Origin: Cenococcum geophilum
Lineage: Eukaryota
Direction: 5' to 3'
NCBI GenBank assembly: GCA_050273025.1
Contig: CP158635.1
Location: forward strand, 2,294,001-2,358,000
DNA: 64,000 nucleotides
The position numbers were made by a program, and so were the translations under genes. Of this stretch, positions 8,929-57,164 are shown one piece after another; the first letter of the stretch is position 1, and each line of letters starts with the position of its first letter. Under the pieces are notes generated by a model, which was given only the letters and a program-made list of their open reading frames with translations, was not told the DNA's origin and made no database searches.

Positions 8929-8973
8929 ATTATTTAACTTTCTATATTTAATACCGTAACTAGGTAGTAATTA

Positions 8974-16659: not shown

Positions 16660-16980
16660 TTCTGCAGAACTATTGTACGCAGAACCGTCGTACGTAGAGC
16701 TGTCGTGCAGAGCCTCCGAACGTAGAGCTTTGTGCGGAGTTTTGTAGAAAGCCTCCGTACGTAGAGCTTTATGCGGAGCTTTATATAGAGCCTCTATATA
16801 CAGAGCTTTGTGTAGAGCTTTATACAAAGCTTTATACAGAACTTTGTGCAAAGCTTCGTGCAGAACTTCGTGCAGAGCCACCGTATACAGAGCTTTGTGC
16901 GGAGCTTCGTGTAAAGCTTTATATAGAGCTTTGTATAGAGCTTTGTACAGAGCTTCGTACAGAGCCTTATACAGAGCCTA
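16660..16980. repeat. Degenerate 12-bp (some 15-bp) minisatellite, consensus ~tgtacagagctt
   Basis: More than 20 imperfect copies; explains the ALHK/ALYK ORF on the minus strand. Confidence 0.85.
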
Positions 16981-25412: not shown

Positions 25413-25514
25413 CGTCAGGAAAAAATTTACCAGCATTTTCGCAGCATTTAGCGGCATTTAGCGGCCAAATGCGCAATCCGCGCACTGCAACGTATAGCGT
25501 ATAGTATTAACTTA

Positions 25515-25852
25515 GGTGCGGCATACTGCCGCATCTAACAACGCGGTATAGCATACTGCCGCATTTAATAACGCGATGTAGTATACTGCCGCATCTAATA
25601 ATGTAGTGTAGTATACTGTCGTATCTAGTAACGCGGTGTAAGTATACTGCCGTATCTAATAACGTGGTGTAGTATTCTGCCGTATTTAATAACGCGGTAT
25701 AGTATTCTGCCGTATTTAATAACGCAGTATAGCATTTTGCCGTATTTAATAATATAGTGTAGTATATTGCCGTATTTAGTAATATAGTATAAGTATACTA
25801 CCGTATCTAATAACGCGGTGCAGTATACTACTGTATTTAATAATATAGTATA
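25515..25852. repeat. Left subterminal tandem array, 29-30-bp unit, ~11 copies
   Basis: gtatactgccgcatctaataacgcggtgta repeated head to tail. Confidence 0.9.
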
Positions 25853-26239
25853 GCTAATTGCGTATTTATAGCTACTTAGGTAAGTAGTGCCTTTATTTTA
25901 TTAAGCTCTCTCTATACTTAATACGTAATTAATATATAATACCCCCCTTACGCATTTTATATATCTTACTTACTTTAAGTAATAAATAAGCGTTGCTCTT
26001 TCTACGTACTTAATAGTATTTGCTTAGTCTATATAGTTAGTAGTATTTACCTATTCCGCGCAATTAGTATACTTTATTTAGTCTATATAGTTAATACCCT
26101 TTACTTATTTTATATAGTTAGTGTTCTCTACTTATTTTATACGCCTAGTATATATTATATAAAGAATATATTTTAACCTAATAGTACTATAGTATAACCT
26201 TAATACGCCTAATAATGCCCTTTAGTTAACCTACTATTT

Positions 26240-26790
26240 TAAGTTTAATATTTATATAAGTCCCGCCACGATAGTAGTACCGTACTATTAAACCCCTAAT
26301 TATCTTTATTCTTACCGTTATTCTTACTATTATTTTCCCTGTCTATCCCGCTGCCTTCTCTACTTTTATTTTTTTTGTTACTATTATTTTCCCTATTTAT
26401 TCCGCTGCCTTTTTTACTCTTATTTTCTTTATTAGCAAATTTCAGTATTACTAGTCTATCTTTACTCTGTAGGCGGGCCTTTATATCCTTTAATATAGCA
26501 CTATTTATAATATCTATAACCTTAAACTTGCCGGTAAAAGTATACTATAAGATGCGGTAATTAATTCCTATTTCCTATTTATTATTACCTTAAATTTATT
26601 TAAGGCGCGCTTAAATAGCGTTAATATTATAGTTATATAGCATTAAAATTATTTTATTAGTATATTATAAAAAGGAGACCTTATATATAGTTTTAGGGTT
26701 TATTCTTTACAATAAATATACTAGGCTATCGTTGTCCTATTATATTATCTTTATTAGCCCGTATATAATAATTAAAATAGCGCAATATTA
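26240..26790 (-). pseudogene. Small ORF with acidic repetitive C-terminus, unknown function
   Basis: De-RIP reading ...EENESEEGSGMNRENDGDEENESGEGSGIDRENDG... Confidence 0.35.
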
Positions 26791-26899
26791 TAATATAGGA
26801 AATGGCGGTAAAGTGCTATAGTATAGAGCGAGTATCGCGATATAATGTTGCGATGCGATTAATGTAATATTATATATTTATACTTATAGTATACGGTTG

Positions 26900-28530
26900 T
26901 TAAGTAAACCTATTATTATATTTAGGATCTAGTTCCTTTAGATCTTTTATAGTATCTTTAAACGGATTACTAATTATCTACTAAGTTTATAGTATTTTAT
27001 CTCTAGTTATATTCCGTATCTTATTAACTTATTATAGAAGTAGCCTATATAGCCTTTTATTAAGCTTAGGTTAGTAGCTTTTTTTAAATATTCTATAGTT
27101 ACTCCTAACTATCTATAATATACTTTAGTAAGTATAATAAGAGGCTTCCTATAGATTTACCTATAATTATAGCGTTAGCTTTAAACTTATAAATAACTTA
27201 TATTCCGCTTTTATAGTCCTTAAAAGTATATTAAATTACTATATATATAAGCTATATTGTATTAGCTATAATAGGTAAGAAGAGGTTAGTACTATTTTTA
27301 TTAAGGGCGAGTAACCTTAGCCTAGTATTAAAGAACACGCGCTTAATATAACGTGCAATAATTAGTATCCTAAATTTTATCTCTCTATCCTAGCCTTAGT
27401 TAGGTATAGTAAAAGGTAGAGTACTAACTAGGCTACCGAGCGTAAAGCGGTTATCCTTAAGTAGTTCCGCTACTTCTTTTACTACGGCCTTAGTATCTAG
27501 TTTAAGGCAGTTATAGCTCCCGGTAATAGTATTACGTACTATATTTATTATATAATACTAAAATACGCTAAGCTGGTTATATAGCTAGAAAATTAGTTAG
27601 TATAGTGCTATTAAATCTAAGGACCGCGAACCTTGCGTACTGCCAGCCCTAGTAGTATACTTAATACTTTATTTATCGGGTTTTTATAACAGTTTATAAT
27701 AGTAATTACCTCTTTCCATGTCTGCTTTATTAGTGTATTTAGACTACTTATATTTATTTCTAGCTAGGGAAAGAGATAGAGCTCTTTAGGTATAGAGCCT
27801 GTTATTACTTATATAATAAGATATGTCTAAGTAATACTATATATCTTTATATTAACTAGGCTAAGTAGCTGCTTTATACGTTGTCTAAAGTTATCCTATA
27901 GTAGTTATTTATTTAAGTAATATATACGTTTCTTTTAAGTATAGGTTTTAGATGTCTTATAGTTGCTTAGGGTTTATAGGCTTTTATCTAATAAGAATAG
28001 GACTGTCTGTTAGGATAATATTATTAAAATTAATAATAATAGGTTGTACTATGGTATATTAATAATAGCCTTGCCTTTTAATAGAGATAGTTATAGTATA
28101 GAGCCTAATATTATCCCCTTTAAGATCTAGATTATCTTAGGAGCTACTACTTAACTTACGGCGTCTTTATTTACTTTTCTATAGGATAGGTAAAGGATAA
28201 GTATATTAGTTTAGTAGAACTATTTAGCTTTTATATATACCTTACTTTCTTAAAAGATACTAGATGGTCTAGAGTCTTATACCTAATATACTTTAAATAA
28301 CGACCTAGTTAACTTTTATAATATAAATTAGGTATTTCTCGCTAAGTATATAAAAAGGAGTTTTAATAAACTTGTAATAATAAGTTAGGAGGGCGGTTTA
28401 ACTATTTATTAGGCTTTATAACGGGGCGATTAAATTACCTTGCTATAGTATAGGGTTTTACTTTATATAATATTTTTTCTATACTATACAGAAGCCTAGT
28501 TCCTTACAATATTTACCTACTCTTAAGGTA
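26900..28530 (-). pseudogene. Intron-containing gene resembling DUF6532-domain proteins
   Basis: EVAELLKDNRF / F..LII..YI.RVFF..R...LF.P....IA pattern; short GT..ctaac..AG introns. Confidence 0.5.
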
Positions 28531-28599
28531 GATAGTATAGTATATAGGATATAAAGGGTAGCTAGCGTGTAAAGGGCAATACGTAGTAGTGTTATGTTT

Positions 28600-31500
28600 T
28601 AGTTTATTATAGTTACAGTAATCTACCCCTTTATTATAATCTGGCGCCGCTAGTTATAACTTACCGCTATTTTAGCTAAGTTATATTTATTTACTACCTA
28701 GTATAAGCCTATTTCCTTATATATGCATTAATCTATACCCTATTTATTTGCTCGGAATCTTTATTATATATAGTATTATATATATTCTAATTACTATAGT
28801 TATTTATAAAAAACAGTCTGTAATATTAATATCTGTTAGTATAAGTAAGATAGGCCTTATAATATAGTTAATATTATATATTTAGAGGGTATCTAGCATA
28901 CGTTTTATCCTACTGTTAAATAGCTTTATACTCTACACTCTAAGCATTTTAGTTCTTATATTAATCTTACTACCGTTATAAATTTAAAGGGTCTCTACTA
29001 ACGCATTAGTATATTTTAGGTATTTACCCTTACTATTTAATTACCTAGTATTTTAGATTATAAGTAGTAGATAAAGCCTCCCTACTTTATTACTATAGAG
29101 GCTGTTATTTACCTACTTATATTCTTGCACTATTATAGCATTATAGTAGGGGGCTTTAGTGTTAGCTTATAATGGGGTATATTAAGTAAACACCTTATTA
29201 AGCTTATTAGTATTAGTAGTATTCTTTCTAAAGCAAATATAGTATATAACGCTGTAATAGATGCTTAAGGGCATCTTTAATACCTAATTATTATCGGCCT
29301 TTAGTTAGTTAATATCCTAGTCTATTTACCGGATTCTATTAATTTACTTACGGCATTCCCTTATAAAGGGGGCTAGTTTAGATATAAGGTCGGTAATTTC
29401 TATTTAGCGCTATACCTCCTTAACCGTACGCTAGATAGATATATTAATTCTCTAGTCTTAAAGTATCTAAGTTATATAGTTATTGAAGTTCTATATATAT
29501 AAGCGATATACGCATATATTAACTATAGGGCCTAGTTATATTATCTATATTACGCTTATTAGGTCTACTATATTAATTATATTAGTTAACGCTTATAGCT
29601 TAAGTTTGTTTTAAAGTATAGTGTTAAGATATATAGTGTTATATTATAGCATCTACTCTTTATAGTTGTTCCGTTTATTAGTCCTATAGTAGAATACCTT
29701 TTATAGCTTATATACTTGCTCTAAATACTCTATATTTATGCCTCCGATTACTTTTAGTTACTAAATACTCTTTAGATAGTAGGTAATAATATATAGCTTA
29801 GGAATATTAAAGTGTAGTAGTCTTACCTTACTTAGTTAAAACGGAAGGAATATATCCTTTATCTTATCTATTCTATAAATAGCTACTACTAGGTATTAGA
29901 TGGTTAATTTATTATATAATATATATTAAGATAGTATAGTAAAGTCTATAAACGCCTAGATAAATAGTATAGCGCCTTTATTCTATTTTAGTAAGGGTGC
30001 TATAGTAGGGACTAATTGTCGTAATAGAGATTTATATATCTTTCCTATTTATTAGCTAATATTTACCTAGCTATCCTATACTATTATATTAGTAAATTAT
30101 TCCACCTATATAAAGCGGGTGGTAATAAGTATATTAATGTTTAATATCTCCTAGCCGTAATTATCTATGCGCGGGATATTAAGGCCCTAATATTTTCTGG
30201 CCTATATTTCGCTTTATATAAGCCCCTTAATTTAGTATATAAAATGTTTACTAGTAAGGCCTTTAAGCACCTAGTATAGAAAATTAGGCGCTATTATCTT
30301 ATAGATATTAAATAGATTATAGCCCTATATAAAGTTGTAGAACGGCTAAATATAATCTAAGTTATCCTTCTTATTAGTATTACAACCTTCCTACTATATT
30401 TGTATTTAGTCTTTTATTAATTAGTATATATAGAACGGCCACGGTCGCTAGATGGCAGTTATTAGATTATACTGTTTATTTATATATATATAATAAGTCG
30501 AATATTTATAGCTACTTTTAATACCTATAAGCGTAATCTATTTTTTATAATTAGCTATAAATACAGCTAGAAGTAGAAAGTAGTATTAATTCTAGCTATC
30601 TATATATAGGAGATATACTCCTTCTTTACTAGCTTTTTTTAATGCTATAGGCATTATTAGTATAACTATACTAGTAGTAGGGTTGTCGCTAAAGTATACG
30701 TTTAAGGATAGCCGTAAGGGTCTTATGTTGCACCACTAGTTATATTATTTAGTTACTAGGTATATAGACTAGGAGGTATATAAGTAATAATAGGGCTAGT
30801 TAATTTACAGATTATTAAACACGCAGTTTAATATTTCTAATTAAAATATAGAGCGGCTATACTTTCTTGCTGCTAGTATATTATATTAGTTAGGTTTTAT
30901 CACTAGCTAATATAATTAGCACTATAGTTGCGCTAAGTAGTAGCTGCTCTTACGTCTCCTACTACTAGTCTACTGTATTAAGCTTATTATATATTCTTGT
31001 TCCTGCTAATAAGTACTACCTTACTAGTAAGAAAGTTATATCTCCTTAGAAAGGGCCGTAACTAATAAAAAAGGACATAATCTTTAGAGCATTTTAGTAA
31101 CGTACTAGTAGCTGCTAGTCCCCTATAGTTATAATTATTTTAATCTACTGCGGTTAATTACTCTTAGATTACATCTATTTTAAAAGTAGTTTTGCTTTAA
31201 TATTATTAGCACTCTAGTAAGAAAAATAGTTAGTAAATATTTCCTAAAGCCTAATATTATTAAACCACTTATTAATAGCGCGGTTAGTGTAACGGAACCT
31301 TGTAGCAGGAACTACGGTAGGTCCTGTTATTAGGCTAGGTGTGTAGAAAATGCAAGTACAAAAGTCAACAACGTAATAACAACTGGTGGAGTGGTTGCCC
31401 AATAGATTAACTCTAATTGTATTCTAAGAATCACTATAAGGAAGGAACTATCTAGGTAGGAACTAAGGGTCCTTAAATACACAACCGTACTCCTATGAAA

Positions 31501-32450
31501 TCCTTCTTGTACGTGATGTACGTCTTATATATAAGGTACGTGAGTTCCTCTCGTTCCTCTCGTTTAATACATAGCACATCATGTAACCTCGGTTACCATT
31601 CCTCGTCATATAGTTCTACCGGCTCCATCCTGGACCGTGCCTGAATTAACCAACTAGCTTCTTCCGTCTCTTCTCTAAGCAGTTATAACATCGTACTTAA
31701 AGCGTCCGTAACAGTTAGAAGTCCTATAGCTTACCTATTATAAGACCTGTATTTATTCTGCCTTACTACTAAATAGATAAAATAGGGGAGGTATCTTATC
31801 TAGTATATTGCTAGTACGCTTAATACGCAGTATAATGTTATATACTACTGTAGTATTATTTATAGTTTACGGATTTCCTTAGTTCTATCTTAGAGGCTTT
31901 CCTATAGCGCGGCTAGTGGCCTTTTTAAATATTTTAGTCTAAAAGACGTCTATAGATATTCTAGTTAAAGTTTACTAATTAGTCTTAATTACTACTAGGT
32001 TATATACCTATTAAATATTACGGAATTATTGTTATAGTACATATCCGCAGCCCTATTATTTAGCTTATTAATAATATTATCGCCTAGAGCTTATATAGGT
32101 GGCCACTTATTACCTTACTCCAATTCGGCCTTATAATTAGTTATATAATGCCCTTCTAAGGTTTAATAGTATAATAGTGCATTATCGTCTATATATTATA
32201 TAAGTGGCTACTTATTATATTGCTTTAGCTTAGCCCTATAATAGGCTATTTAATACTCTATGCTTTAATAGCGTAAGGGTATATTATTATTTATCTCTTT
32301 AATATTAACGCCCTTATATCTACCCTTCTTCTATTTCTATTATCTTAGATAATATTATTTATAACGGGTTAAACCGCCTATGCTTTTTACTTTAGTCCTA
32401 TACTTTCTATATTACCGCTAGATAGAGCTTATTTATAAATTACTATATTA
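28600..32450 (-). pseudogene. Plavaka-type transposase, split by a solo LTR
   Basis: N-terminal C..C...GGLTRH; ELNT.DWWWETQEQL..AT.VPI.LASDKTQL (~30890-30990); WPLY.SIGNI; APDFLHQVLKG..KH (~30255-30295); HFNIPKLH...HY..SI (~29790); TE..E..H..K..Y..TNK. Confidence 0.87.
31288..31713 (-). mobile_element. Solo LTR (426 bp), same family as 8974-9380
   Basis: tgtaacgga...tccgtaaca with 5-bp TSD gttag (31283-31287, 31714-31718). Confidence 0.93.
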
Positions 32451-32509
32451 AGCTGTAATTTGCTATAATTTGGTTAAAAGGGAGCCGAAAATAATATCTA
32501 TATAGAACT

Positions 32510-34100
32510 GTATATTTAAAGTAGTATTTATAACTTATACTATATTATAAGCTAGTTAAAATAGAAGGAGTATAGTAAGAATACGGCGATATTTATAGAC
32601 ACTAACGCGCTAGATAGCGTAACCCGTTATATTTTACGCTAATTTATACTAAATTACGTTACGTTAGGCTAGGAGACTTTACTTATTACTAATATTACGC
32701 CGCCTCTCTGTTATACTAAGTATAGGATTCTAAATACTACTATTCCCTACTTAGGATACTAGACTGTTTTTTTACAATAGGACGCGATATATAATAGCGG
32801 TATGCTATAAATGCGGCGTAGTATAACTCTGCGAGCGCTATAGACCCGTAAAAAGATATATAGCTAATTACTAGCTTAGGTATTACTATAAAGAGATTTA
32901 ATACTATTAAGCGGACTTTTAAGCAGGTTATTATTAAGGATAGTATTTTATATATTTTATTTTGCGGATAACTAAACGATTTACTATACGAGTAGGCGAT
33001 CTAGAAAGTTATTTATTAAGTAGTAAAATATAAGAAGGTATTAGCACTATAGGTATATAAGGCTATATAGAATATACTAGCCCGCGTATAGTTAAATATA
33101 TATAAGAAGATAAAGGTACTAGGGCGGCCTAGTATTAATTATATAGTGGATATAGAAAGAGGGTATACGGCTGCCGTAAACTTATAGAGTTTATTTTAGC
33201 TTAACTATACGTAGAACTGCGGCTATAATCTTAAACAGCTTATTATACTACTTTGTAGGTAGAAACTAGATAGTATAAACTTAGTCCTAGGTATAGACGT
33301 GGCCTTAAGTCTAGTATTACTGTCTAATACGCCTTAAGACCTACGTATAGTCGAATATTAGCTACTAGTTAAGATATTTTTAGAGGCCGGGGTAGATTGT
33401 AATAAGGAGTGAATATAGGCCGCCTATATAGAGATTATGCCTATCCGAAATAATAGGGCCTTAAGGGCTGCTCTATTAAGGGCAGTTTATTATAAGGTAG
33501 GCTAGGTTATATTTACAGCTATCTATAAAGATAGTATATAGGTGTCCGTTATAATTATAATATATTACTAATATTATATAGCCCTATCTTTAGCGTAATA
33601 CGTTTTACTAGGCGGGCTAAAAAGTATTAATTAATTATAGTTAATCTAATCTATATAGAGATAGTAACTTTAGTTAAGTTTGTTTTATAGCAAGACCTCC
33701 TATTATACTAAGAAGCCCTAAGATTATTGCCTATATATATAATCTTAGGTTATCTAAACATAGTATAGCGAATTACCTTTACTATAGGCTCTTCTATTAG
33801 GGGTAACTATATAGACATTATATTTGTCCTGTGTTTTGCTAGCTAGTAGCTAGTATAGTAGGATAGGTATTATTTTAAGGGCCTATTGTATTAGTGACAA
33901 GTTTCTTAAGATATAGTAACGGCGTATTAATACTAGGAATAGTATACCTAATATAAGTAGGAGAGGGCGTTAGGTCACGTTGCCTTAGCGGTAGCTATAG
34001 CGAGAAAAAGATTAAATCCTATTTAAGGTTGTTATAGTTTAGCAAAAATAGAGGCGGCCTATACTATACGGAGAGTAATTAATAATAGTTGCGGTTGTTA
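32510..34100 (+). pseudogene. Unknown ORF with Cys/His cluster near N-terminus
   Basis: C.KCG...LCER(C)....(H)...(H) at ~32800-32880, followed by a frame whose stops look RIP-type. Confidence 0.35.
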
Positions 34101-34699
34101 GCGAGATATCTAGACTATAATCTAACTAGTTAAGTACTTAGGGAATATTTAGTTATAAGTTTAAATTAGAATAAGGGCTTTAGAATAGAGTTAATTTAAA
34201 GCTTTAATTTAATTTTAAGGCGACTGTTTAGTTAAATTCTAGTTTAACTTAACTTTAGCTATAAATTTTTAATGTTCTAAAAAATACGCTAAAAGTTACT
34301 AAAAAGTTGGTAACTTACTATATATAGAATCTAAACTAAGGTCTTAGCGTTAGTTTAAATCTAAAGGCTTTAAATTATATATGTTTATGCAACCTATAGA
34401 GCTATAAACGTATATTAAATTAGAAAGGAACGCGTTCTTTCTACTAGACTTTTAGTTTAAATTTAAAAGTAATAGATTATAACTAAATAACCCCTTAAAA
34501 TCTAGATTATAGATTAGTATTAATTAACTACTAGCCTAAAAGGGATAGAAACTAAAATTACTAGGCTTTATAAATTAGGCTATTTTTACTATAATACGCT
34601 TGTCTATTTTAGAGATTATAATTATTAAGAGTTTATTTTATTTAGCTGTGATATATAATATTATAATATACTATATTTTACCTAGTGCTATAGCAAAAT

Positions 34700-37600
34700 T
34701 ATAAATATTAAAGGCCTATAGCTACTACCGCTCTTAACTTTTATTTAGTGTCCCTATTTAAGGGTCTCGCTACTAATAAAGTCTATAATATCCGTCTTTA
34801 CTATTTTCCTTATATTCTAACGCCACTAATATCCTCTTTATTATTATTATCCTTATTATTATTACCGGCACCACCCTAGCTATTATTATTAGCGCCCTCT
34901 CTATTAGCCTTATTCTACGCTTTAATATAATTACTAGTACTACTAATATTTGCTACACCCGCGAAGTTAGGGATAGTAATATTAAAGTTAACGTCTATAC
35001 TATACAAAATAGGCGTGTAATTGGCTATATACTAGTGGTAGATACACTATATAGTTTTATTAACGTTAAATAGGGCAATAAGTTGCTAGAAGTGCTCTTT
35101 CCGCTTAGGATTTTTAAGGTTAATAAATACCTTATTATCCTTACACCACTTCTTAATTTTATAATATGCGGTATTTATAAAGGTTTTATTGCCGGTATAA
35201 TAATTATAGACTACCTAGGGACTACTAATAATAATAAGGCCCGCTTATAGTCTAGTAATTATAAAAAGGTTCCTTACTATATTTTAGATAAATTTTAGCG
35301 GACCGGCGACTATTATATTATATACTAATAACTCTACCTAGCCGCCTTAAATGCCGTTAACGGTAAAGACCTTAATCTTAATAACTACTAGCGTAAATTC
35401 CCGCTACTTACTGCTATCTTACTAGGCGTAGCACTATTCTTTAAGCGCATATAGCGCTGCGGAGTAGATGGTAAGTTAGGCTATATATAAAATAGTAAGG
35501 CTAACCTCTAATAGCTTAAATCTAAAGTCTATTAGCGCTATAGCTACCTAAAATGCGCGTTAAGCGTAGACTAGGTTATATGTTAATTGGCTAAGCTTAT
35601 TTACCTATATAGTACTATTAACGGTAAGAAAGGCGATAGGGTAGTCGTAGCGCAGCATATCCTTAAAAAAGCTCGCCGCTAGCTTTAACTACTCTTAGTT
35701 CTTAACTATTAGGCTTATCTAAAGCTAGCTATATAGTAGGATAGTATTTATAAGATATATAATATCTTTAATAAATTAATATTATAGCGAGAACTATACT
35801 ATATCCGTACTAGCCGCAAGAAGACATATATAGAGGGAGATAGATTTCTAATAGTAGAACGGATTATCGAAATTAGGACTAAGGATTAGTTTTAGTTAGT
35901 ATATATTATTAAGAAGAACCTAAGGTATAGGGTCGCTAGCCTAGATCTATAGACCTCCCTAAATTAAATATAGTCTGCTCTAGGCGAACCTAGTAAGACT
36001 ACCTAGCTTATATACCTTTTTGGCCTTATTATGGAAAACTATATATATAGCGCTAATGGAATGTATATAAGTCTATAAGACTATATCGGGTATTATAAAA
36101 ATAATATTAGCCTTCTTAGCTAGGTCTATAATAACTACATTAGCCGCAAGTATTAATTCTATCTTATTATCTTATATTATATTATTACTAAGCGTAAATT
36201 AGTATAAGTATTGGCGGAATTTGGTGTATTTAGTTATATTAGGGTCTGCGATAGGATATAGGTTTCTATTACTATCTAGAATACCTATAAGGCGTAATAA
36301 CTACTAACCTTTAGATAAATCTATAACCTATAACCACTTATTAAAGCTAGTGGTATTACTAGCCTTAAATATATAGTAGAGTAGGAATGCTATATTTAGT
36401 ATAGACGCGTCCTTATTAATTATAGCATAGTTATCCTATTCCTTAAAATACTTAGGATAAGTATTAATGCCTGCCGCTATTTGCTATATAATAGTATCCC
36501 GCTTATAGACCTTAGTTTCCGTTAAGCGTATATAGCGGTAAAGGATAATAGGAAATTTAGCGGGATGGCCTTACGTAATTAGTGCCTTATAGTCCTCTAT
36601 AAGTGTATTATTAATTATCTTAGCTAGCATATCTAGTTGGTAATTAAGTGGCGATAGAACCTAGATTTTAGTAGGATCCTATTAGGGCGACCTAAGTTAA
36701 TACTGGTATTATACTAAAATAGTTAGAAAGATTGATTTCCTAATACTACTAGGGCCTTATATTAGCAAAATACCGCCTATTATATATTTAAGCGTAGTAT
36801 AGGTACCCGTTTGCTCTTTATTAAGTAGCAGTAAGATAACCTTAAGGGCATTATTAACCGAGTTCTTCCTATACTTAGTAATATTATAGTTAAAGTAATT
36901 AATACGCGGGAGATCTGTAAAGTTGTTAGATAGTATAATTTAGCGCTTAATATAGAAACTATCGCCTCCTTACTATAGGTAGCGTAGAGTATTAATCTCT
37001 TAGAAGATTCTAACCTTAGGGATACGCTTAGTTATAAGATATTTAATACTCTATACCGTAATTAGGGCCTTACTTAGGTTACTAACTATTATAAAGTCGT
37101 TACTACTTAGGATATGCTCCGGAATAAATATAGGGTTTAGTATAAACTTATAACCCACCTATAGTTAAAAAAAATAAAAGTATAGTAGTTATAGCCGGAG
37201 CTAAAGGGAGTAGTATTAATAATAACTCCTTTCTAGCTAGCCTAGCTATCTACGTCTTTACCTAAAAATAAGATATTAATAATAGAGTTAGTATAAAGGG
37301 CAAGACTATTAACTATCTGGATAGTAGTGTAGTAGACTTAATCCGCGCTACCTAGAAAGGTAATAAGATAAATAATAGTAGGTACCTAGGGGTTCTAATT
37401 AATGGCCTTAAGGCTTGCGACTGTGGTATAGAACTAGACCATAAAATACTTAAAAATGCTATTAAACTAATACCTTGCGGGGATTTTATACGATAGTCAG
37501 TCCTCTATTAAGAGCTATATACTAAGCTAGATATTTATATTATAGTTCTTCTACTAGTGACCTAAAGGATTGTTAACACTCTGCTGTTATAGGCTTATAT

Positions 37601-39100: not shown

Positions 39101-39708
39101 GTATACCCTAATAAAATTATATAAGTAAGGCCTTAGCGGTAAAGTATATAATTATACACTTTATAGGTTAAACGCGTATAAGGGTAAACCTATAATAACG
39201 AAACTAACTTATAGAGAAAGACGCGGTATAGTATAAGTTATAGGGACTACCCTACTTAGCCTATTTCTTAATATAGACTAGGCAATAGTTTAGCACTATT
39301 AAGCTTTTGCAGTTTATAATGCGAGTATATAGATATATAAAAGGGTAAAGGAAAAGAAAAGCGAGTAGTAAAGTAAAAGTACTTTACTATAGGCAGGCTA
39401 ATTACATTATAGGTAAACGGAAACTTAAACATTATAATCTGTTAAAAATGTCACTAATAAGTATAGCTTACCACTACTAGAAAGTATAAGTCTTTTCCTC
39501 CCTTAATTAGTAAGAGAAAAGGTATTATTAACTAAATAATCTTTTACTCGAGTATTAGGTAGGGAGTGGGATATTATAAAACTATATATAGTTTTAAATA
39601 GATCTAAAATAAAAATATTAAATTTAAGAGACTCTAATATAATAAATATTATAGTAAAATACTAACCTCTTATATAACACTAAATAGATAAATAGTAAGA
39701 TAAGTTAA

Positions 39709-45621: not shown

Positions 45622-45931
45622 GTTAACGTTGTTAAGTAGCTAGATATTAGTATATATAATATATCTACTATCCTAAAATGCCGTAAAATGCTATAAAATG
45701 CCGTAAAATGCTATTAATTATATAAACTTATAATATAAGATATAAAACCTCCTATTACCTTTTATAGTAGATATATATTTAAATAAGCACTAGATGTTTA
45801 TATATAGACATAAATCCCATATACTAGATAATTATTATTCTAGATAAACTTATCCGGTAGGCCCTTAAGTACTATATAATATAATAATAATACTAGTAAT
45901 TATAAAGTAAGTATAATATGTTACTGTTTAC

Positions 45932-46233
45932 TAGAAGTACTACCTGTTATATACTAAGTACTTTATAGTAATAGAGTCTGTATATATAGATATAGGCTAG
46001 CCCTCTAACTTTAGTAGCGCGTATATTTACTAACTTTATATAATAATAAGAAATATAGTAACGCCTATAATAAGTATAATATATTGCCGTCTATTAGAAA
46101 TACTACCTATTATATAATAAATACTTTATAGTAATAGAGCCTATACGTATAGATATAGGCTAGCTCTCTAACTCTAGCGGCGCGTATATATACCGACTTT
46201 ATATAATAATAAGAAATATAGTAACGCCTATAA
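45932..46233. repeat. Two ~138-bp direct repeats
   Basis: 45932-46070 matches 46096-46233 with mostly transition differences. Confidence 0.8.
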
Positions 46234-46659
46234 CCTTCTATATTTTATTATACTGTAATAACTAGTTACCCCTTTATAGGCACTTAATAAATCGCTTATA
46301 TTAAAAACTGTAAAAGTTTAGTAGTATTAAACCGCCACCTAGCCCTAAATAGGCTAGGTAGGGTAGTCCCTATAAGTTATATAATTATGCCCTTATTTAA
46401 CTATATAGTATTAAGTCTAGTTATATTTACCCTAACTAGTAGTAGTAAACTATAGCTAATTTCACCTCTATATAGGTACGTGTGGGTAATTATAAGATTT
46501 ACCTCTTTACCTCTTCTTAATTAACTTTATTTATTTTACCTTTTATCTCTCCTATAACTAACCTCTAACTATATCTAATACTAGAGTTATACTAGTATAG
46601 CACTAGCTAGCTACCGTACGAAGCCCTTTTACTTTAATAGTCACCTTTTACTTAATATA

Positions 46660-49600
46660 TGCTGTAATATTATATATACCTAACTAAATAAGCGACTTAA
46701 TAATAATGCATATATAGGTAAAGCCGGATATGTGGTATAAGGCGAACCTAAAGCTAACTAAAGATATAGATATTGCCTAAGGCTTTAGAATAAGCATTAA
46801 AAACTATAATAGACTAAAAGAGACAGTTAAAGATATTGCGATTAAAGTTAAGCCTAAGTATATAATATATTACGATAACTCTATAATAATAAAAGAAGGG
46901 CATATTAAGGAGTTTTATAAGTAACTTTTGTAATTTATTAATGCTCTACCGGATTAAAAACTATAGGTAATTTTAAAAATTATAGGAAGTGCTTATTTTA
47001 ATCGCGCAAGGAGGGTATTAAGTACCTCTAAGAGTAGGCACGCTCTGTATAAATATATATTACCCCTAAAGACTAAAGCATAAAATAAGATAACGCTACC
47101 TTAGCTGCTGTATACGATATAGCCTATAGATGTTACTATAACCCTACTATATAATATCCCTTTGCCTTAGCTAGTAACCCTAGTAGTAAGTAACGCAATT
47201 AATATAGGAGATATTAAGATTGAAATTTAATCCATAGGCTTAACGGGTAGGTTAATAGTTGGGGTAGTTTAAGTCTTATATCTAATAAGCGGAAACCTAT
47301 ATATAGCTTTAGGTAAGCTATAGGAGGAACTACAAGCCTATATAGAGCTTAATATTAATAGTCCGCCTAAAAAGAATATTTATATATTGCTATAGAGATA
47401 TAAAAACCTTATAATACGGTTAGAGGGCATACTTATTGTAGCTCTTAGTGAAATAGCGAGAAATGGTATAAAGGAGGCTATGCTTATAGCATTACTCTTA
47501 CCTCCTAGCTTAAACTCCTAAGTCGCTGCCACTAATAATATACCGCTAGCTATTAAATCTAAGGCGCTTAAATATAACGGACGTAGTATAAAAGATAGCT
47601 AGCAAGTCCTAACGCCGCGTAAGGCTAGCGGCAAGAGTAAACTAGGAGAAGGTAAGAAGTAAAGTTAATTAGGATTAGCAGTATATAGCTCTAAAGAAGA
47701 TAGTAAGGGTAAGCCTATTAGATATAAGAAATTAGATAATAGTAAGACTAAATTAAGTAGATATAATAAGTAGCCTTAATTAAGATTAGTAATAAGTACT
47801 CTAGTAAAGAATAATAAAAGCAAGCCGGCCGCGCCTAGGAAGTTAAATAGTTATAAGGCCAACCCAAATAGAAGTAGGAAACGCCCTTAAGTAGAATTAG
47901 TGGTAGACACCTTTATAGAAAACAGTAATAACGAGCCGGTTATGCGTAGAAGGTAATTAGTAAAGGGAAGACGTAACCCATCTGCCTATAAGCCTATATT
48001 AGCGAGTAATATTAGTACCGGAGAAATTGCTATAGATAATAGTAAATCGCCGTAACCTATTACTGAACCTAAAGGTATATACTAGCCTAATAATATAATA
48101 GACGACCTTATTACCACATTACTAACTATTAATACCCCTTAAGATATTACTGTAGAGGATAGTAAATTGCCGTAACGTGCTGGTGGATATAATAATTAGT
48201 TCTTATATTATACTAACTCTAAAAAAAAAAAGGAGCTCTTGCTGCACCCGGCCTAAAAAGACCAAAACTAACCAAAAGAACCCTAAAAAATACCTAGAGA
48301 ATCCCCCTAAGATACATGCATCGCAGGGGAGGCACACGTCAAACGACGGTAGCTTGCACTCGCGCGCGACCGCTAGAACTACGCCTAGCAATGGCCCTCT
48401 ACAATAAAGACGGGCGAATACCACACTATAAAGCGGAAATACCTCTATTAAGAAGGTATCTAATAAAATATAAAGCCTATTGGACGTATCTAGTATCCAA
48501 AATTGCGGGGGAGTAATCATTAGCCATAACGAACTAATGCAGCTAGTAGAATGGCTCCGCCAGTCCAGCGAACCTTAGGCGCCCCTCTAGTAAACCCTTA
48601 ATTAAATCCTCTAATGGCTAAGTAAAATTAAAAATAAGTATAACCCCCCCTTACCGGCGAACCGCACCTAGGCCGCCGTAGCTGCGCTTTTATAGCATAG
48701 GGAACCTACCCCCCTTAAGTTAATAACTGGGCATATAATTATAATATAACTAAATATAGAATAAGTAGAGGGGCTTAGGGGATAATTAGAAACAGAAGTC
48801 CTTATAGAGATACGCAAAGAGGTCTATAACGCTATTATAGTCCGACACCTTAAGAGTAGAGATATTAGAGTTACCCTAAAGGATTAATAGGTAAAGGAAC
48901 GAGCTATAAGGGTAGGGGATAGGCTAGGAGAACGTATTGGCATAAAAGTACTCCGTGAGGATTACCTAGTTGAAGTCCTAGCGGTTCCTATAAGCCTTAG
49001 GGTAGAAAAGGGACGCTAGGCGGACAACATAGTAATTATATAGGAGATAGTAAGACAAACGGAACGCCTTATACTAGGACTTGAAATTACCCAAATCTAA
49101 TGGCTTTAATAAGAAAATATAAACTAAGTATATAATAAGAACAATAAGAGGATATAAGGGTCGCTAGAGACTCGCTAGGGAGACGCCGGACGAACGCATA
49201 GCTCCCTTATCGTTAGCACACATATACCAGGAATGTAAAAACTCCTTATCTAAAAAGGAATAATTATAAATGGCCTTATATATAATATAAGGCTCTATAA
49301 CCACAGACTACGCCTAAAATAATACTATTGCTATATATAATGGGGATATACCTAATCTATATGCGTAGTACAGGTGTGCTGCGGCCACTATACAGGCCCC
49401 TACAATATAAGACATTGCTTAAATTAAGACTAAACAAAATGCGTAAACTGCTACCGAAGCATATATAAGGCGTAGGAGAGAGAAAACTGTATTAAATACA
49501 GGAGACGGAAGGCAAGGGCTTAATAGCTGCGGGAATAACTGCACGCTAGGTTATACAAATGGAAATAATAGGCGATAAGCTAGGGGGACGTAGGCGCCTT

Positions 49601-52600
49601 CCTAGCGTTTCCTACCTTTAATACTAGAGGGCTAGGCTAGCTATCCCAAGCCTTAATAGGCCAGAAGCGACGCCGTGTAATATTACTAGACTAATTAGGG
49701 ATATAAGGGTTACAGGGGACATAAGGGAGAGAACGCCCCGTAGGAAGACCCCTATAGATAGCAACAGTAGGCTTAAAACCAGGATAATTAAGAATTAGAC
49801 TTAATACGGTAAATATAATATTTATAGCCAACCTATAAAGGGTATATAGCTAACTAGTAAGAATAGGGGAAGAACTGGTAATAATAATAAATTTAGATAT
49901 AGAAGCGCTAATAAGAATATAAGACACGGGAATGGAAAGCTCTATATAAAATAAGTAGTAACTAGGGTGTAGATATAAGAGACAGAAGCTCTAAATATCC
50001 TAGAGAAAGTGGAAATAGAAGAAGTAAGGAACGAAGGAGAGTCGAAGGACCCTTACTGGGGGTCCGCTACCTATCTATTATATAGTATAACTGCGGTAAT
50101 ACAAACTACTACCTCGCAAGGCCCCTATTAGATAGTCTAGACCTAGAGAAATACTATATCTTTGCTATATAAGAACCGTATTATAATACCTTTATATAAT
50201 TAACATACTGCCCCTAAGGATTCTAGCTCCTATACGAACTAAAAGCAGCTATACGTGTGTGCTTTATAATTAGTAAGGCTATTAGCCTGTCCTTATGGTT
50301 ATAGTAGGCAGTTAACCTAGATATTACAGTTATAACAATCTAAATATATAGGGGACCGGTATAAATTATTAATGTGTATAACTTTAGGGTTAAAGGGGTC
50401 CTATAAATAGAGAATATTATATTGGTAATAAGCTTACTAGAAACCGAAGGTATAGAGTTTATCCTACTAGGAGATATAAACCTCTACCACCCGCGGTAGG
50501 GGGGTATCTATATTACTATAGATTAATAGTTAGAGTGCCTACTAAGAGCTATAGATATCTAGGGCCTTAAGCTAGCTACCCCCCCAGGAGCAATTATATG
50601 GCAATGAGGCACTACTAAAAGTATAATTAACCTCACATTTATAGACGAAGGCCTATACTAAAGACTTAAAAGGTATAACCCTAAAGAAGAATAGGCACTT
50701 ACCCTAGACTATATCCCTATTCAGATATAGCTAGACCTAGATACTAAAGCGCAACTAAATAGAAAAAGATACGCAATAAGGAAGCTTAAGATAGATAGTT
50801 TCCTTAATGTAGTTAAACAATAACTTTAAAACCTAGAAGAAATCTACCTAATACCAAACAAGCGAGGCTTATTGGCCACCCCTAAGGAAATCGACCGAAG
50901 ACTAAAAAGGATCTAGGCAGCGATTAAAAATAGGCTGAAAGAGCACTGCCCAATCTTAAAACTGGGCCCCTACGCGCGATACGCATGGTCTATATAATGC
51001 GTAATTCTAGTTGCTAGCTAACGACGAGTAAGAAGGAAATATATAAGCAGTTACGACCCTAAAGATAAAAGATAATATAAAGACATAAGAAACCAGCTAA
51101 AGAATACCCTAAAAAAAGAAGCAAGGAATAACTAGAGACGGTTTATAAACGAGTATACATTTAACCCAAGCCTCCCCCATAATAAGGGCCTTTAGGCTAT
51201 AACGAAATGGGTAAAAAAAAAGGCAGGGCGCCTAGTAGAAGACCTATACTTACCACCCCTATGAAGAGTAGGAGAATTATAGGCCACAAACAATAATAAT
51301 AAAAAGGTAAAGATCCTTATAGAAAGGTTCTTCCCCTAACCGGCTTTAGTAGACTTTAGTAATATCACGGGCGAAATACCGGTGACTTGCCTGCGGGTTA
51401 ACAGCGATATAATAACAGAGGAAATGGCTAGAACTATTAGCCGCCTTTTAAATAATATAGTACTAGGACCAGATAGGATTCTAAATAAGGCCCTAAAAAC
51501 CTATGGGCCACTTATAGCACCTTGGCTTGCAGATATAGCTAGAGCATGCTTTGCTATAGGCTACTACCCGCGACTCGGAAGATCTATAACAACGGTTGTC
51601 CTATAAAAAGAAGGTAAAGCAGATTACTTAATCCTAGGAAGCTACCGCCCTATTGCCTTAGAAAACACCCTTAGCAAGATCTTAGAAAGGGTAATAGCGG
51701 AACGCATAGCAGATATGGTAGAGGAACACGCCCTACTACTATAAAGCTAAATAGGGGCAAGAAAGAACCGCTTAATACTATTAGTACTTACGCTACTCAC
51801 TGCCACCATTAAATCTGTATAGGCGATGCGAAAGGACTTTGTAGTATTAATGCTTAGCCTAGATATTAGTGGTGCCTATAATAATATACCCCACAAGCGT
51901 CTCCTGTATATTCTTAGGGTAAAGGGCTTCCTAGAATGGATTATATAATTTATCTAAGGGTTTATAGGCTAGAAAGAAACATTACTAGTCTTTAGCGGAT
52001 ACTAGAGCCCCCCTATCGCAGTTGCAACAGGAATACCATAAGGATTACCCCTCTCGCCTATACTCTTCCTTTTCTTTATAAGCAACCTACTTAACTCCTT
52101 TAAGGAAGGGGCGACCTAGGGGATAGGCTTTGTTAATAACACAAACCTAATTACATACGGGCTAATAGCTGTAAAGAATTGCAGAATACTAGAGAAAGCC
52201 TATAACACTTATATAGAATGGGCAAAATGTTATAGAGTCCAATTCTTACTAGAGAAATACCAGCTAATCCATTTTATAAGAAAACGCAACCAATCTACAG
52301 ATCTCTAGTATATAATTCGCATCTAAGGCTTTAGGGGTTAGCCAGTTTAGGGCCTAAGGGTATTAGGAGTATAGGTAGATAGTAAGCTTCGGTAGAGCGC
52401 ATATACGGCGTAAGCGGCCCGTAAAGGCTAAGTATAGTTCATCGCTTTATCTAGGATTATTAACTCTATATAGGGTCTATGCTTCTAGAGGTCACGCCTA
52501 CTATATATAGCAGTCGTCCGGCCAACCATGATATATAGATCCAGTATTTAGGCCATTAGAGAAACTAAGAAGGGCCCCCCTAAATTACTCCTTAAACTAC

Positions 52601-55600
52601 TTTAAAAGGTCTAAACAGCCTACCTTTAGAGTATTATAGGCGGGTACAAGCAAACGGCTATAGCACTGCTTAAGAAGGAATCCAATATTCCCCCCCTATA
52701 GTTATATATTAAAGCCGCTATAATATAAAGGACGCAAAATAAACGCAACTCTAATATTATAAAGTATATTAAAACACGCCTAAGTAAACTATAGAGGGAC
52801 CCTAGGGTGCCCTATAGGAGAATAAACCAACAACCCCAAAGTAGGGAAGAGATATTAGAGAAACAGGTAAAGAAAGCAGAAGAAGAATAGTGCCGCTTTA
52901 GGGCCTAGGCCCATATAGAGGAGGAAGGGAGACGTATAAGAGGTTAGCAAAGATAATAGTAAGATAGAGAAAGGAGCTAAAGTAGAATATATAAGAATGC
53001 TGGAAAACCATCTACCGCAATGCAATACTGGTTAGACTAACACTGGAGAGGCGAATGGGAGTTAAAGGTATAGAGGCTGACTTAGGTAAGACGAACCTAA
53101 GCTATAGTATAGTTAACGCTATAGGGGGTAAATACTTAAGGGCTCTAAGAAGGCCTAATAAAGGTAGAAAATATAATAGCAACACTCTTAAGAACAGAAA
53201 TAATAGGACTAAAAGATTGGCTTTACTAGGTGGGTGTCCTAGTAGGTAGCCTAAGATATAAATATAGCTGGCTAAGACAGACACCAAAACACGTAATACT
53301 GCTATGCCCCCTACGCACTAATTAAGAAATAATGCTCTTAGCAGCTGGCATAGAGAACTATAATATACTGCTCTTAATATAAAAAGGCCTTAAGGCGGTT
53401 ACCTAGTGGCTTATTAGTTAAAATATGCTAAATTAGTTCTGGGTTGCAAGAGAAATGGTAATAGAAGGTAAGGGGGCGAGCAGCAGGTGCCCCCTAGTAA
53501 CTCTATAGTAGTAGAGTAATAGTTTGTAATACTAGCGCGTCCGTAGGCTTGTTACGGCAGCAGTGGTTCCTAAGGAGGTTAAATAGTAAGGTAGTAGAGC
53601 ACTATAGGCGACTTATAGGCGCTAAGTAGGCGAGTCCCAAAAGGCGGGGAGATAGATTATGGGGTTTTCTTATTTTTCTTAAATACAGTTTTCTCCCCAT
53701 ATGTAAATAAGGAGTAGTCCGCGTGGGCCCAATAGGGATCCGAATCGGACGTTAAGCAATGAATTATTATTATTATACTAACTCTAAGGACGCGAAGAAT
53801 AGAGATAAAGATAAGGATTTAGTTAATAATAACGACTAAGATATAGACGTAGAGGAAGAGCTTAACTAGTAATCTTTTTTAGCTTAGCTTTATAAGGCTA
53901 GAAAGGATAACCTAGATAGCATACTAGCGTATATAATAGAGGCGGATCTTCTACTTACTCTAGAGTATTTCTTACTTATCTTATTAAAAGCACTTTCCGA
54001 AACTACCCTAATTGAACTCCCTAATTAGGGCCTTGTATTAGGCTTTAAATTTAGCCTATACTAAGTAGTATATATAGCTTAGGTATTTAAGTAAGAGAGA
54101 ATAATTAAAGGAGGTGGTATCTATATAGACAAACCTAGCGCAGGCAAGACTATATAAATAATTACTTAATAGCTAATAAACTACTTTTATTATTAGAATG
54201 TAATAGACGTTTAAAAGGCCTGAGCCACTGGGGATATAACCCGCCACCTATCTAAAATATATCCGCTAGATGCAAAATGCCTATAGGTAGTAAAGTAGCC
54301 GATTATATACTACTGCGAAGATAACTTTAAGAAACTGTACCCTATAGACCTATAGCAAGGCTGCTTAGTTATCTTTACGCTAACTTTAGGCCTGCTAGGA
54401 TTCCTAAAGAACGCGAGTGTAATATTATAAGACGGCGCGATTATAAAGCGCCCTAACCCGCCCTAGATTATAATTCTCGCCCCTAGCTACGATAAAGTTA
54501 AAATATTTAGTAAACTAAAAAAGGATAAATAGCTATAAATTTATAAGGCTTTTAAGTGGACTAATAAGGAATAATAGGAGAATAATAATAATATATATCT
54601 GGTTAGTAAGACTCTCCTATTATACCTATAGGGTAAAGCTAGGTTTAAGAATAATTATTACCCTACCCTAATATAACGGAACTATTAGCGCCGAGATACT
54701 TAACCTAATTCCTTCTAATTACTACGCGAAATTATATTACCACATAACTAATACGCGGGTTTATTACTATATAAACTAGTATATAAAAATACCTAAAGGG
54801 CAAAACCCCTAAATTATATTAGAAATTAAAGAGTGTAATATAGGTTAGGTATATCCTTTAGGATAAATACCACCTAGACGTAACTAGTAGAGTCTTAATA
54901 TTGTTTATTAAGGATGTAGTTAAGGAGTACTATATTATATATAATCGCAGCCCTACTATATAGGGTGCGTTTAATACGCCTAATAACGGAAACCTAATAT
55001 AACTAATACGGTTTATTATAGCAGGATTAAAAAGGCCTAAGTGGAAAGAAGTAGATAAGCTAAAGGGAACGGAGTTTAAAGTACTGCTTAAGCTTAAAGA
55101 AGAAAATATCTAGCTAAAGAAGAAGGAATTTAACTGTCTCTATAAGGATATAAAGACTAACCCATTTAGAGTAATAGTAGATAAGAAATTCGGTAAACTA
55201 GCTGTATTTTTCCGTATAGTTATTCTAACGTTTTAGATATATAGAGGGGAGTTAACACTCTGGTTTAACCAGCAAAAGCTTATCCTAAAAAATAGCTATC
55301 TTAAATTAGTTATATTATAGGCCGACCCTAATAATACTAAGGCGGCTATAATTATAGCTATAGAGGACTAAGTAAGGATAGAGTAGAGGCGCTAATATAA
55401 GGAACTTCTAGCTATATAGGAGGAAAATAATAGTAATTTAAATACTAAACCTAAGATACCGAAACTTACTTAAGCTAAGTTATATACTAATGCGAAAACG
55501 GTAGTAAGCGTAGCCTAGGTTGTCTAATACTAGGACTAGTATACCCCTATTATAATTAAGTCCAATAAGTCTAATAAGTCTAATAATAAACGCCTAAAAA

Positions 55601-56243
55601 CTTAGAGTTGTATACTTAAGGACCTAATTATTGCTAAGTGGACTACTAACCTACTTAGTAAGGAGTTTACTAATATGCTTAACCGCTATTTTTAATAGAA
55701 TACAAAGTTCTTTTAAGCTAAAAAAATCTATAATTATGTTTATATCGAAAAATAAACGGATGGTTTAGCGTATAAGATTATTATTACTACTTACTTACCT
55801 CTTATACTAGCTTATTAGTTTAATAGGCTATATAAAGAATATAGTAAAGATAAGGTACTCCGCTATGCAGCTAGTATATCTAATATTAAGAAGGCTAAGG
55901 CTAGGTAAACCTTTAACACTAATAACTCTAAGTAGATCCTACTTTGCACCTTTATATTAATTAGGCTATCTATTAACCTATAGCGCGCAAATTATACTAT
56001 TGTAGTTAAGCTAAGCCATAAGCTCTCAAAGGTAAAGTAACTATTTACTTAGATAAATTAATAAGGATAGACTAAGCCTATTTATTATAGTACTATTATA
56101 GCTAATTAGAAGTTAAGTATTAAGTAAAGGATGTTAAAGTTAACTAAATTTACGTTATTACTGTATAAGTTAGTATATAAGGAGAAGGCCAATTTAAGCT
56201 TAAAAGTAGGCTAAGGTAAAAAGGAAGACATTAAGACTATCTA
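46660..56243 (+). pseudogene. SNF2-family ATPase/helicase with long low-complexity N-terminus, split by a LINE
   Basis: Motif I GGI..D(E)P(G)AGKT.Q.I (~54110-54160), motif II D(E)YH (~54862), HELICc ILLCT...G.SINLQRANYTIVV(E)P...Q.F.R.NRQGQTKP (~55935-56080). Start approximate. Confidence 0.78.
48223..53770 (+). mobile_element. Full-length Tad-like LINE (ORF1 with CCHC knuckles; ORF2 endonuclease-RT)
   Basis: FAIQEP, LLGD.NL.HP.WGG, GSYRPIALENTLSKILE, LDISGAY, GF..(DD)TNL; (ATT)n tail; TSD ~tattatactaactctaa at 48206-48222 and 53771-53787. Confidence 0.93.
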
Positions 56244-56649
56244 ATACTAGTAACGATTGTAAGAGTATAATAGAACTATAGATAGTTTTAAATACTATAT
56301 ATAGCCGCTATATAGCGAAACCTATTATAATTATATAGTAGTATATATATAGGCTAAGGGACGTGTCTTCTAATAACTTATAGGTAGTAGCGTAGCGTAT
56401 ATAGTAAACTTAGTTAACTAAAATATTTCTAGTATTATTATTTCTAAGAGAGTATTAAGTTATAGCTTATAGCACTTTTATTATTAAGGCAGCATTTAGC
56501 CATAAATTACAGCATTATTATTATTGGTGTAGTATATAGCCGCAAAATATAACTAAATGCGGCTAAATACTAAAATCGCTTAATTAGTATAAACCTAATT
56601 TAAGATACTAGTAAATTTTTTTATAATACCGCCCCGCCCCCTATACTTA

Positions 56650-57125
56650 CTAATATTAATAAAATATATATAAAATATAAAATATATTATTTTTATTAAT
56701 AATATTAAAATTATAAAAATTATACTTTTTTATATACTTAGTAATATTAATAAAGCGTATATAAAATATTAAAATTATAAAAATTATACATTTATATATG
56801 CTTAGTAATATTAATAAAGCATATATAAAATATTAACATTATGAAAATTATATATTTATATATGCTTAGTAATATTAATAAAGTGTATATAAAATATTAA
56901 AATTATAAAAATTATACTTTTATATATACTTAGTAATCTTATAATTAGTACTTAGTAGCTAAATATTAACACTTAATTATAAATGCTGTATTTGGCAGCT
57001 AAATGCTAATACTTAATTCTAAATGCCGTATTTAGCAGCTAAATGCTAACACTTAATTCTAAATGCCGTATTTGGCAGCTAAATGCTAGGAAATGCTAAA
57101 AATGCTAAAAAATGCTAAAATGGCA
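56650..57125. repeat. Right subterminal tandem arrays (~64-bp and 40-bp units, then aaatgcta runs)
   Basis: tagtaatattaataaagcgtatataaaatattaaaattataaaaattata x~4; gcagctaaatgctaacacttaattctaaatgccgtatttg x~3. Confidence 0.85.
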
Positions 57126-57164
57126 GAAAAGTAAAATTAAATGCTGGTAAATTTTTTCCTGACG

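Follow-up and report, generated by a model that had tools for sequence, protein, structure and literature searches.

Giant transposons in which a Plavaka transposase is accompanied by accessory genes have already been described. The Plavaka elements of the Agaricomycotina include PlavakaA, with a 2-bp target site duplication (TSD) and TGT..ACA termini, and PlavakaB, with a TSD of 2–3 bp and CATCA..TGATG termini, and some carry a TET/JBP gene for which a role against silencing has been proposed (Kojima, 2025; PMC12730594). A comparable proposal has been made for the genes PAG1–3 of the giant Plavaka elements (17.4–19.1 kb) of the red alga Bostrychia, of which PAG1 is of unknown function, PAG2 combines an N6-adenine methylase with a SET domain and PAG3 a ParB domain with a 2OG oxygenase (bioRxiv 10.1101/2025.02.11.637652). 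En/Spm elements of 16–20 kb with 4–5 open reading frames (ORFs) are known from Chondrus (cited in PMC6431247), and helicases are encoded by the eukaryotic DNA transposons Helitron, AcademH and KolobokH (PMC10799480). The present work concerns a 64,000-nt stretch of the genome of Cenococcum geophilum (contig CP158635.1), referred to as the window and used for all coordinates below, in which the interval 25413–57164 is likely to be a copy, inactivated by repeat-induced point mutation (RIP), of an autonomous Plavaka-type DNA transposon (CMC/CMCT clade) with PlavakaB-like ends and with an accessory helicase and an accessory SNF2 ATPase.

Both ends of the interval are formed by 26-nt terminal inverted repeats (TIRs; CGTCAGGAAAAAATTTACCAGCATTT) at 25413–25438 and 57139–57164, which are 100% complementary and span 31,752 bp from end to end. 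When used as a pattern with up to three mismatches, the TIR occurs only twice in the 64-kb window, compared with 0.00 occurrences expected from 100 dinucleotide-preserving shuffles. A 2-bp duplication (ct) lies immediately outside both TIRs, and removal of the interval and one ct joins the flanks into ...CTCCAGCGCTAATACCTACTTTAG..., a sequence that keeps the phase of the adjoining 18-bp tandem units (CGCYAATACCTACKCTAG). Because of this duplication and the exact reconstitution of the empty site, the TIR-bounded interval was taken to be a single insertion. The preliminary description of the window had claimed perfect TIRs at this distance, a ct duplication and arrival as one unit into an 18-bp repeat, and all of this was borne out. 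Inside the TIRs, an array of 30-bp units occurs at the left end (25515–25854), while AAATGC-rich repeats with units of 64 and 40 bp occur at the right end (56642–57089). At the left end the outermost 47 bp contain the motif GCATTT three times, and at the right end the outermost 184 bp contain it ten times, inverted (read inward); its frequency across the element is 0.52 per kb.

Three later insertions, each with its own target duplications, lie within the element, namely a solo long terminal repeat (LTR), an LTR retrotransposon of 5.9 kb and a long interspersed nuclear element (LINE) of 5.5 kb. Their removal (31752-431-5919-5565) leaves a native length of 19,837 bp, which agrees with the value of about 19.8 kb given previously. 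The 19.8-kb element entered the array of 18-bp tandem repeats in one piece, with duplication of 2 bp. Four of its genes were verified, those for a DUF6532 protein and the transposase by direct reading through stop codons, and those for the helicase and the SNF2 ATPase via intact homologues (proteins P0008 and P0015, respectively). From left to right the element comprises a TIR, the DUF6532 gene (-), the gene for the Plavaka DDE transposase (-), that for the CCHC/UPF1-like helicase (-), approximately 1.9 kb of intergenic sequence, the SNF2 gene (+) and the second TIR, and the two ATPase genes are therefore divergently transcribed. The features are given below, where L003 and L004 are loci on metagenome contigs that carry related sequence.

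25411–25412, no strand: left copy of the TSD, CT (flank inspection)
25413–25438, + strand: left TIR, CGTCAGGAAAAAATTTACCAGCATTT (inverted-repeat and pattern search)
25515–25854, no strand: left subterminal array of 30-bp repeats (repeat search)
27171–27578, - strand: DUF6532 domain of an accessory gene, domain limits only (Pfam on read-through)
29393–31995, - strand: Plavaka transposase core, broken by RIP, with the solo LTR inside (PF18759; tblastn of P0162, P0106, P0131 and P0041)
31288–31713, no strand: solo LTR, 426 bp, TG..CA, TSD GTTAG (not present in L003, the second copy)
34828–38870, - strand: intronless gene with six CCHC knuckles and a UPF1-like superfamily 1 (SF1) helicase, frame change near 37160 (alignment of P0008)
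39232–39708, no strand: left part of an intergenic segment bounded by inverted repeats (in all three copies compared)
39709–45622, - strand: LTR retrotransposon, LTRs of ~165 bp, TSD GTTAA (absent from L003 and L004)
45623–46381, no strand: right part of the intergenic segment bounded by inverted repeats, with 163-bp tandem repeats (repeat search, copy comparison)
46721–48222, + strand: 5′ part of the SNF2-family ATPase gene, amino acids (aa) 7–506 of P0015 (homologue alignment)
48223–53770, + strand: LINE (non-LTR retrotransposon), 17-bp TSD TATTATACTAACTCTAA (RVT_1, E=9e-19)
53771–56211, + strand: 3′ part of the SNF2-family ATPase gene, aa 501–1328 of P0015, frame change near 54662 (homologue alignment)
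56642–57089, no strand: subterminal repeats of the right end, with units of 64 and 40 bp (repeat search)
57139–57164, - strand: right TIR (inverted-repeat and pattern search)
57165–57166, no strand: right copy of the TSD, CT (flank inspection)

To identify the genes, an in silico approach adapted to heavily mutated DNA was required. Of the 151 stop-to-stop ORF pieces of at least 40 aa, 150 were scanned with Pfam, and none matched a gene native to the element; the scan returned two low-scoring RVT_1 hits within the LINE insertion and three further below-threshold hits, to DUF1385, IMS_HHH and DUF3760, which were taken for chance. As such pieces were too mutated for Pfam matches, each frame was translated through its stops, with X at every stop, and Pfam was scanned on those frames, six-frame scans covering 25413–39231 and 53400–57164 only. 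This gave a match to Plavaka (PF18759) at ~30767–31108 (-), with E=2.4e-9 and 37.3 bits compared with a gathering cut-off of 26.3, and one to DUF6532 (PF20149) at ~27171–27578 (-), with E=2.6e-6 and 27.9 bits compared with a cut-off of 24. A phmmer search of 1.84 billion representative proteins with the transposase read-through returned 122 proteins at E<=0.001, and all four homologues scanned with Pfam (P0040, P0106, P0131 and the cluster member P0162) were Plavaka transposases, at 1e-40 to 1e-75. Alignment by tblastn of 15 proteins (14 phmmer matches and P0162) to the window and to L003 placed the core at 31995–29393 (-). A word-index search with the transposase read-through returned no match, and a two-copy consensus of the window and L003 corrected for RIP on the transposase side was uninformative, as its G+C content stayed at 36.6% and just one ORF reached 70 aa or more. 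The element was assigned to Plavaka because PF18759 exceeds its gathering score on the raw read-through, the nearest homologues are Plavaka proteins, the TSD is of 2 bp and the termini (CGTCA..TGACG) are PlavakaB-like, and the transposase named in the preliminary description is thereby upheld.

Compared with the systems above, the element resembles PlavakaB in its PF18759 transposase, its TIRs and its short TSD (2 or 3 bp in PlavakaB), and, like some PlavakaB members, it has accessory coding capacity. It differs in its RIP-active host, its length of 19.8 kb and its accessory genes, which are DUF6532, knuckle-helicase and SNF2 genes in place of TET/JBP. The TGT..ACA termini of PlavakaA are not matched, those here being CGT..ACG. 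With the red-algal giants it has in common a size of ~17–20 kb, a Plavaka/EnSpm transposase with three accessory genes and internal tandem repeat arrays; the accessory genes there, however, are PAG1–3, and here DUF6532, an SF1 helicase and SNF2. Domains of PAG2 and PAG3 were not found in the read-through scans of 25413–39231 and 53400–57164, and the space is filled by the four mapped genes. Helitron, AcademH and KolobokH are likewise eukaryotic DNA transposons with a helicase of their own, but have HUH/Rep, Academ and Kolobok transposases and other helicases, whereas a DDE transposase of the CMC clade occurs here with an SF1 UPF1-like and a superfamily 2 SNF2 protein. CACTA/EnSpm elements belong to a related DDE clade and also have subterminal arrays beside short TIRs; their CACTA termini and 3-bp TSD contrast with the CGTCA termini and 2-bp TSD found here. 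Starships, which are large mobile elements of fungi with cargo, are moved by a tyrosine recombinase (DUF3435). The element was said to be distinct from these, and this agrees with its DDE transposase, 26-bp TIRs and 2-bp TSD, as well as with the scans of the two segments (of RIP-lowered sensitivity), in which no DUF3435 captain but only DUF6532 and Plavaka were found. In the literature searched, neither Plavaka nor EnSpm elements are described as carrying an SF1 helicase or an SNF2 gene. Within that scope the architecture is undescribed, in line with the preliminary description, whose author knew of no account of it but left novelty unverified, and what is new is the helicase and SNF2 set.

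Neither the helicase nor the SNF2 gene gave a Pfam match at E<=0.1 on the read-through frames scanned, and phmmer of the window's helicase read-through against PDB gave 0 matches at E<=10. A Walker A motif decoded by eye from the RIP-mutated sequence (GPSSIRKS) prompted a query of a large protein collection with the read-through, and this identified P0008, a protein of 1355 aa (E=1.5e-227). P0008 possesses six CCHC zinc knuckles (aa 73–185), a Walker A motif (GPGGVGKS) and a motif V (TVDGIQG), with Pfam matches to zf-CCHC (2.2e-21) and AAA_12 (8.7e-20), the latter above its cut-off, and its closest solved structures are UPF1 and NAM7 (6.7e-13), so that the homologue has the features of a UPF1-like SF1 helicase. 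It aligns over aa 1–1347 to 38870–37170 and 37158–34828 (-). Four full-length variants are 93–97% identical, with open frames.

At least five genes had been proposed for the element, one of them a separate Cys/His ORF. Those for DUF6532, the transposase, the SF1 helicase and SNF2 stand, but the only confirmed Cys/His-rich stretch is that of the helicase knuckles, and since P0008 aligns as one intronless gene, the Cys/His ORF and the UPF1-like helicase are most likely the same predicted gene. Between the transposase and helicase genes, ~2.4 kb (32400–34800) contain no recognised gene. A motif resembling C..C in the plus-strand read-through at ~33 kb, for which no homologue or domain was found, may be what was described as the Cys/His ORF. 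In the same gap, 353 bp of the window (34141–34493) are missing from L003, which itself has ~177 extra bases (15934–16131) at the equivalent of window 32574–32594.

On the right side, the read-through query identified P0015, a protein of 1328 aa (E=2.3e-161), of which aa 7–1328 align to 46721–48223, 53771–54664 and 54661–56211 (+), showing one gene split exactly by the LINE. P0015 scores 27.2 bits for SNF2-rel_dom (cut-off 24.9) and 27.3 bits for Helicase_C (cut-off 23.5) and contains the motifs GAGKT, DECH, SGTP and QLFARIDRRGQ, placing this intact homologue in the SNF2 family. As phmmer of P0015 against PDB gave no match, it was regarded as a divergent member of that family. It matches the phage helicase family phrog_62 at 1.1e-23, far better than it matches Pfam SNF2, and its next language-model neighbours after the first cluster are giant-virus SNF2/ResIII helicases, which serve as a lead only. 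On account of these two observations there are hints of a viral-type origin of the element's SNF2 gene. In the viral contig collection no relative of either P0008 or P0015 was found. Six SNF2 variants of 1271–1332 aa (five of them full length) are 92–99.8% identical, and their frames are open.

Scanning of metagenome contigs with P0008 gave four loci. One of these, L003, represents a second copy; it covers 24,065 bp on a contig of 57,680 bp and is collinear with window 26612–46985 in the blocks 46985–46425, 46420–45621 joined to 39709–34494, 34140–32594, 32574–31714 joined to 31287–30478, and 30490–26612. It contains the start of the SNF2 gene (aa 4–94, divergent), the intergenic segment, the whole helicase gene with its frame uninterrupted by shifts, the transposase gene and the region of DUF6532. 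The LTR retrotransposon and solo LTR of the window are missing from it, the junctions falling precisely at the TSDs, and three other insertions, one full LTR element and two fragments of LINEs, are specific to it. At least one further collinear copy of the unit therefore exists. In L004, which has 49% G+C, no RIP mutation and 94% protein identity to P0008, the start of the helicase gene is joined to the same upstream segment, also without the LTR retrotransposon. When proteins were clustered at 90% identity, the longest contigs of the P0008 cluster (13 members) and of the P0015 cluster (12 members) were equal in size four times (20,005, 12,438, 19,995 and 11,654 bp), from which we infer that the same contigs hold both the helicase and the SNF2 gene. 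Part of window 24400–27400 was contained in 20 of the 24 sequencing runs listed.

The intergenic segment shared by these copies (39232–39708 and 45623–46381) is 1.24 kb long, has a bounding inverted repeat of 35–89 nt and lacks a clear TSD; it may be either native to the element or an old miniature inverted-repeat transposable element. Regarding the nested insertions, a Pfam scan of the LTR retrotransposon (39709–45622) was without match, while by-eye reading alone places its integrase before the reverse transcriptase, a copia-like order. The solo LTR (31288–31713) matches the LTR (8973–9380) of a full-length LTR retrotransposon at window ~2668–9380, and a full copy of this family is also present in L003 (564–8185), within the SNF2 5′ region. 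The LINE family that splits the SNF2 gene of the window has two truncated insertions elsewhere in L003 (17794–18446 and 22336–23253), which implies that this family was still active once the two Plavaka copies had separated.

The whole unit has been hit by RIP. The helicase and SNF2 genes of the window have 81 and 87 in-frame stops, respectively, and 165 of these 168 fall where the homologue has Q (95 stops), R (40 stops) or W (30 stops), the other three being exceptions; it is for this reason that RIP is held to have killed both ATPase genes. The commonest substitutions relative to the intact homologues are D>N, V>I, E>K, H>Y, G>S, T>I and P>L. TpA/ApT lies between 1.63 and 1.74 and (CpA+TpG)/(ApC+GpT) between 0.28 and 0.36 in all four native segments. 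Comparison of the window with L003 over 13,729 aligned columns gave 1585 transitions (95%), 81 transversions and 62 gap columns, with mutated contexts of CpA (673), CpG (443), CpT (349) and CpC (117), CpA being preferred. That the unit was multicopy and RIP-damaged throughout, as had been suggested, is thus shown directly by the collinearity of L003 and by these transition-dominated differences. The two TIRs are identical, without a transition, and the first ~90 bp (~25413–25500) keep many CpG and CpA dinucleotides, while roughly a third or more of C/G has been lost to RIP from the element body. The intact ends may reflect either a fading of RIP at repeat ends or late mobilization of the window copy.

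A number of points weigh against reading the interval as a Plavaka transposon with helicase and SNF2 as its own accessory genes. L003 was seen internally only and might have arisen by segmental duplication, or be an allele that has diverged, in place of a transposed copy, and the four other contigs with helicase and SNF2 are known by protein clusters, with no demonstrated Plavaka transposase. The termini CGTCA..TGACG agree with the CATCA..TGATG of PlavakaB at four of five positions, one transition apart. No intact full-length transposase of the same family was found among the homologues, the best being P0040 (a fragment of 298 aa) and P0162 (412 aa). For the accessory genes, the SNF2 domain scores of P0015 pass their cut-offs only narrowly, and AAA_11 of P0008 is under the Pfam cut-off (22.1 compared with 27 bits).

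The helicases had been described as regular components of a large DDE element; the apparent recurrence of the helicase–SNF2 linkage on four contigs supports this, and we regard it as about evenly balanced whether knuckle-helicase and SNF2 are maintained, long-standing accessory genes. The alternative that survives best is a one-off capture, in which an independent, divergent helicase–SNF2 pair derived from host or viral genes or from another mobile element would have joined a single Plavaka lineage not long before that lineage last amplified, hitch-hiking without a role in transposition. It would account for the co-occurrence of the two genes on contigs without demonstrated transposase, for the transposase fragment clusters (P0040/P0162) lying on contigs of 1482 and 18350 bp, none of them equal in size to the helicase/SNF2 contigs, and for the closeness of the SNF2 protein to phrog_62 and, as a lead, to viral language-model clusters; the published Plavaka families consulted carry TET/JBP genes, PAG genes or nothing, and no helicases. 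However, own termini for the cargo, recognised beforehand as evidence that would count against a single unit, were not seen around the pair: the longest inverted repeat bounding the helicase and SNF2 sub-module was 18 in purine/pyrimidine space, compared with 17–24 in 30 shuffles, and is thus not beyond chance. The full gene order is kept in two collinear copies, both genes are intronless, present in multiple variants and open in several diverged copies, as for element-borne genes, and the contigs of 20,005 and 19,995 bp could accommodate a whole element. On this evidence a one-off capture is considered unlikely.

It is very improbable, and already largely refuted, that no single large transposon exists and that the TIRs stem from two small elements or otherwise, with a pile of dead repeats between them and L003 as a segmental duplication, for despite a repeat-rich neighborhood with at least five other element families and a comparison of L003 made internally, without its termini, removal of the interval restores a single 18-bp unit exactly, with 2 bp duplicated, no further match to the TIR occurs in the window, inverted GCATTT subterminal arrays occur at both ends, and the nested elements are each flanked by TSDs and leave four uninterrupted genes once removed.

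With regard to this neighborhood, a piece of an ORF a short distance to the right of the element (57333–57551, +) matches DUF6570 (E=1.5e-5). This domain is known from fungal Helitron-type proteins and would fit the putative Helitron that the preliminary description gave as host of the insertion. A less mutated retroelement piece is present at 19797–21448 (+), with matches to RVT_1 (8.6e-7) and RNase_H (3.1e-7). The only G+C-rich island of the window (49–50%) occurs at 14–16 kb and holds a 111-bp inverted repeat (14704–14815 and 15110–15221, 97% identical), its ORFs being of at most 194 aa and without Pfam match, and dense short tandem repeats (~12-bp period) and palindromic repeats occur at 16660–16980.

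Under the preferred reading of a Plavaka-lineage transposon with accessory genes, the transposase would bind the 26-bp TIRs together with the GCATTT-rich arrays beside them, and the element would move by cut-and-paste with 2-bp duplications. The solo LTR, the LTR retrotransposon and the LINE landed in it later. The helicase and the SNF2 motor may aid excision and integration of a very large element in chromatin, or the handling of DNA or RNA intermediates; alternatively, they may blunt RNA- or chromatin-based silencing, as has been proposed for TET/JBP in other Plavaka elements. Going beyond this single locus, it is conceivable, although we hold it to be slightly less probable than not, that a fungal lineage of giant Plavaka elements keeps a cassette of a nucleic-acid-binding knuckle-helicase, a divergent, virus-like SNF2 motor, a 1.9-kb control region shared by these two and DUF6532 across many copies, probably in several species, as transposition machinery or for counter-defence, with intact and presumably active copies in uncultured or unassembled fungi.

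To our knowledge, eukaryotic DDE transposons rarely carry enzymes other than transposases, and the exceptions known to us, TET/JBP in fungi, VANC in VANDAL elements and PAG genes in red algae, all point to a conflict with host silencing. A Plavaka family with two different motor ATPases extends this list of accessory-enzyme carriers and offers a testable case of helicase function in a cut-and-paste element. It also indicates that, in RIP-mutated DNA, profile searches miss helicase and SNF2 genes entirely, whereas a read-through query of large protein collections finds their intact relatives. Multi-copy fungal gene models annotated as "SNF2," "NAM7/UPF1-like" or "cellular nucleic acid-binding protein" may be transposon genes, and if such a lineage does keep the cassette, many "orphan" SNF2 and UPF1-like genes of fungi would be genes of transposons.

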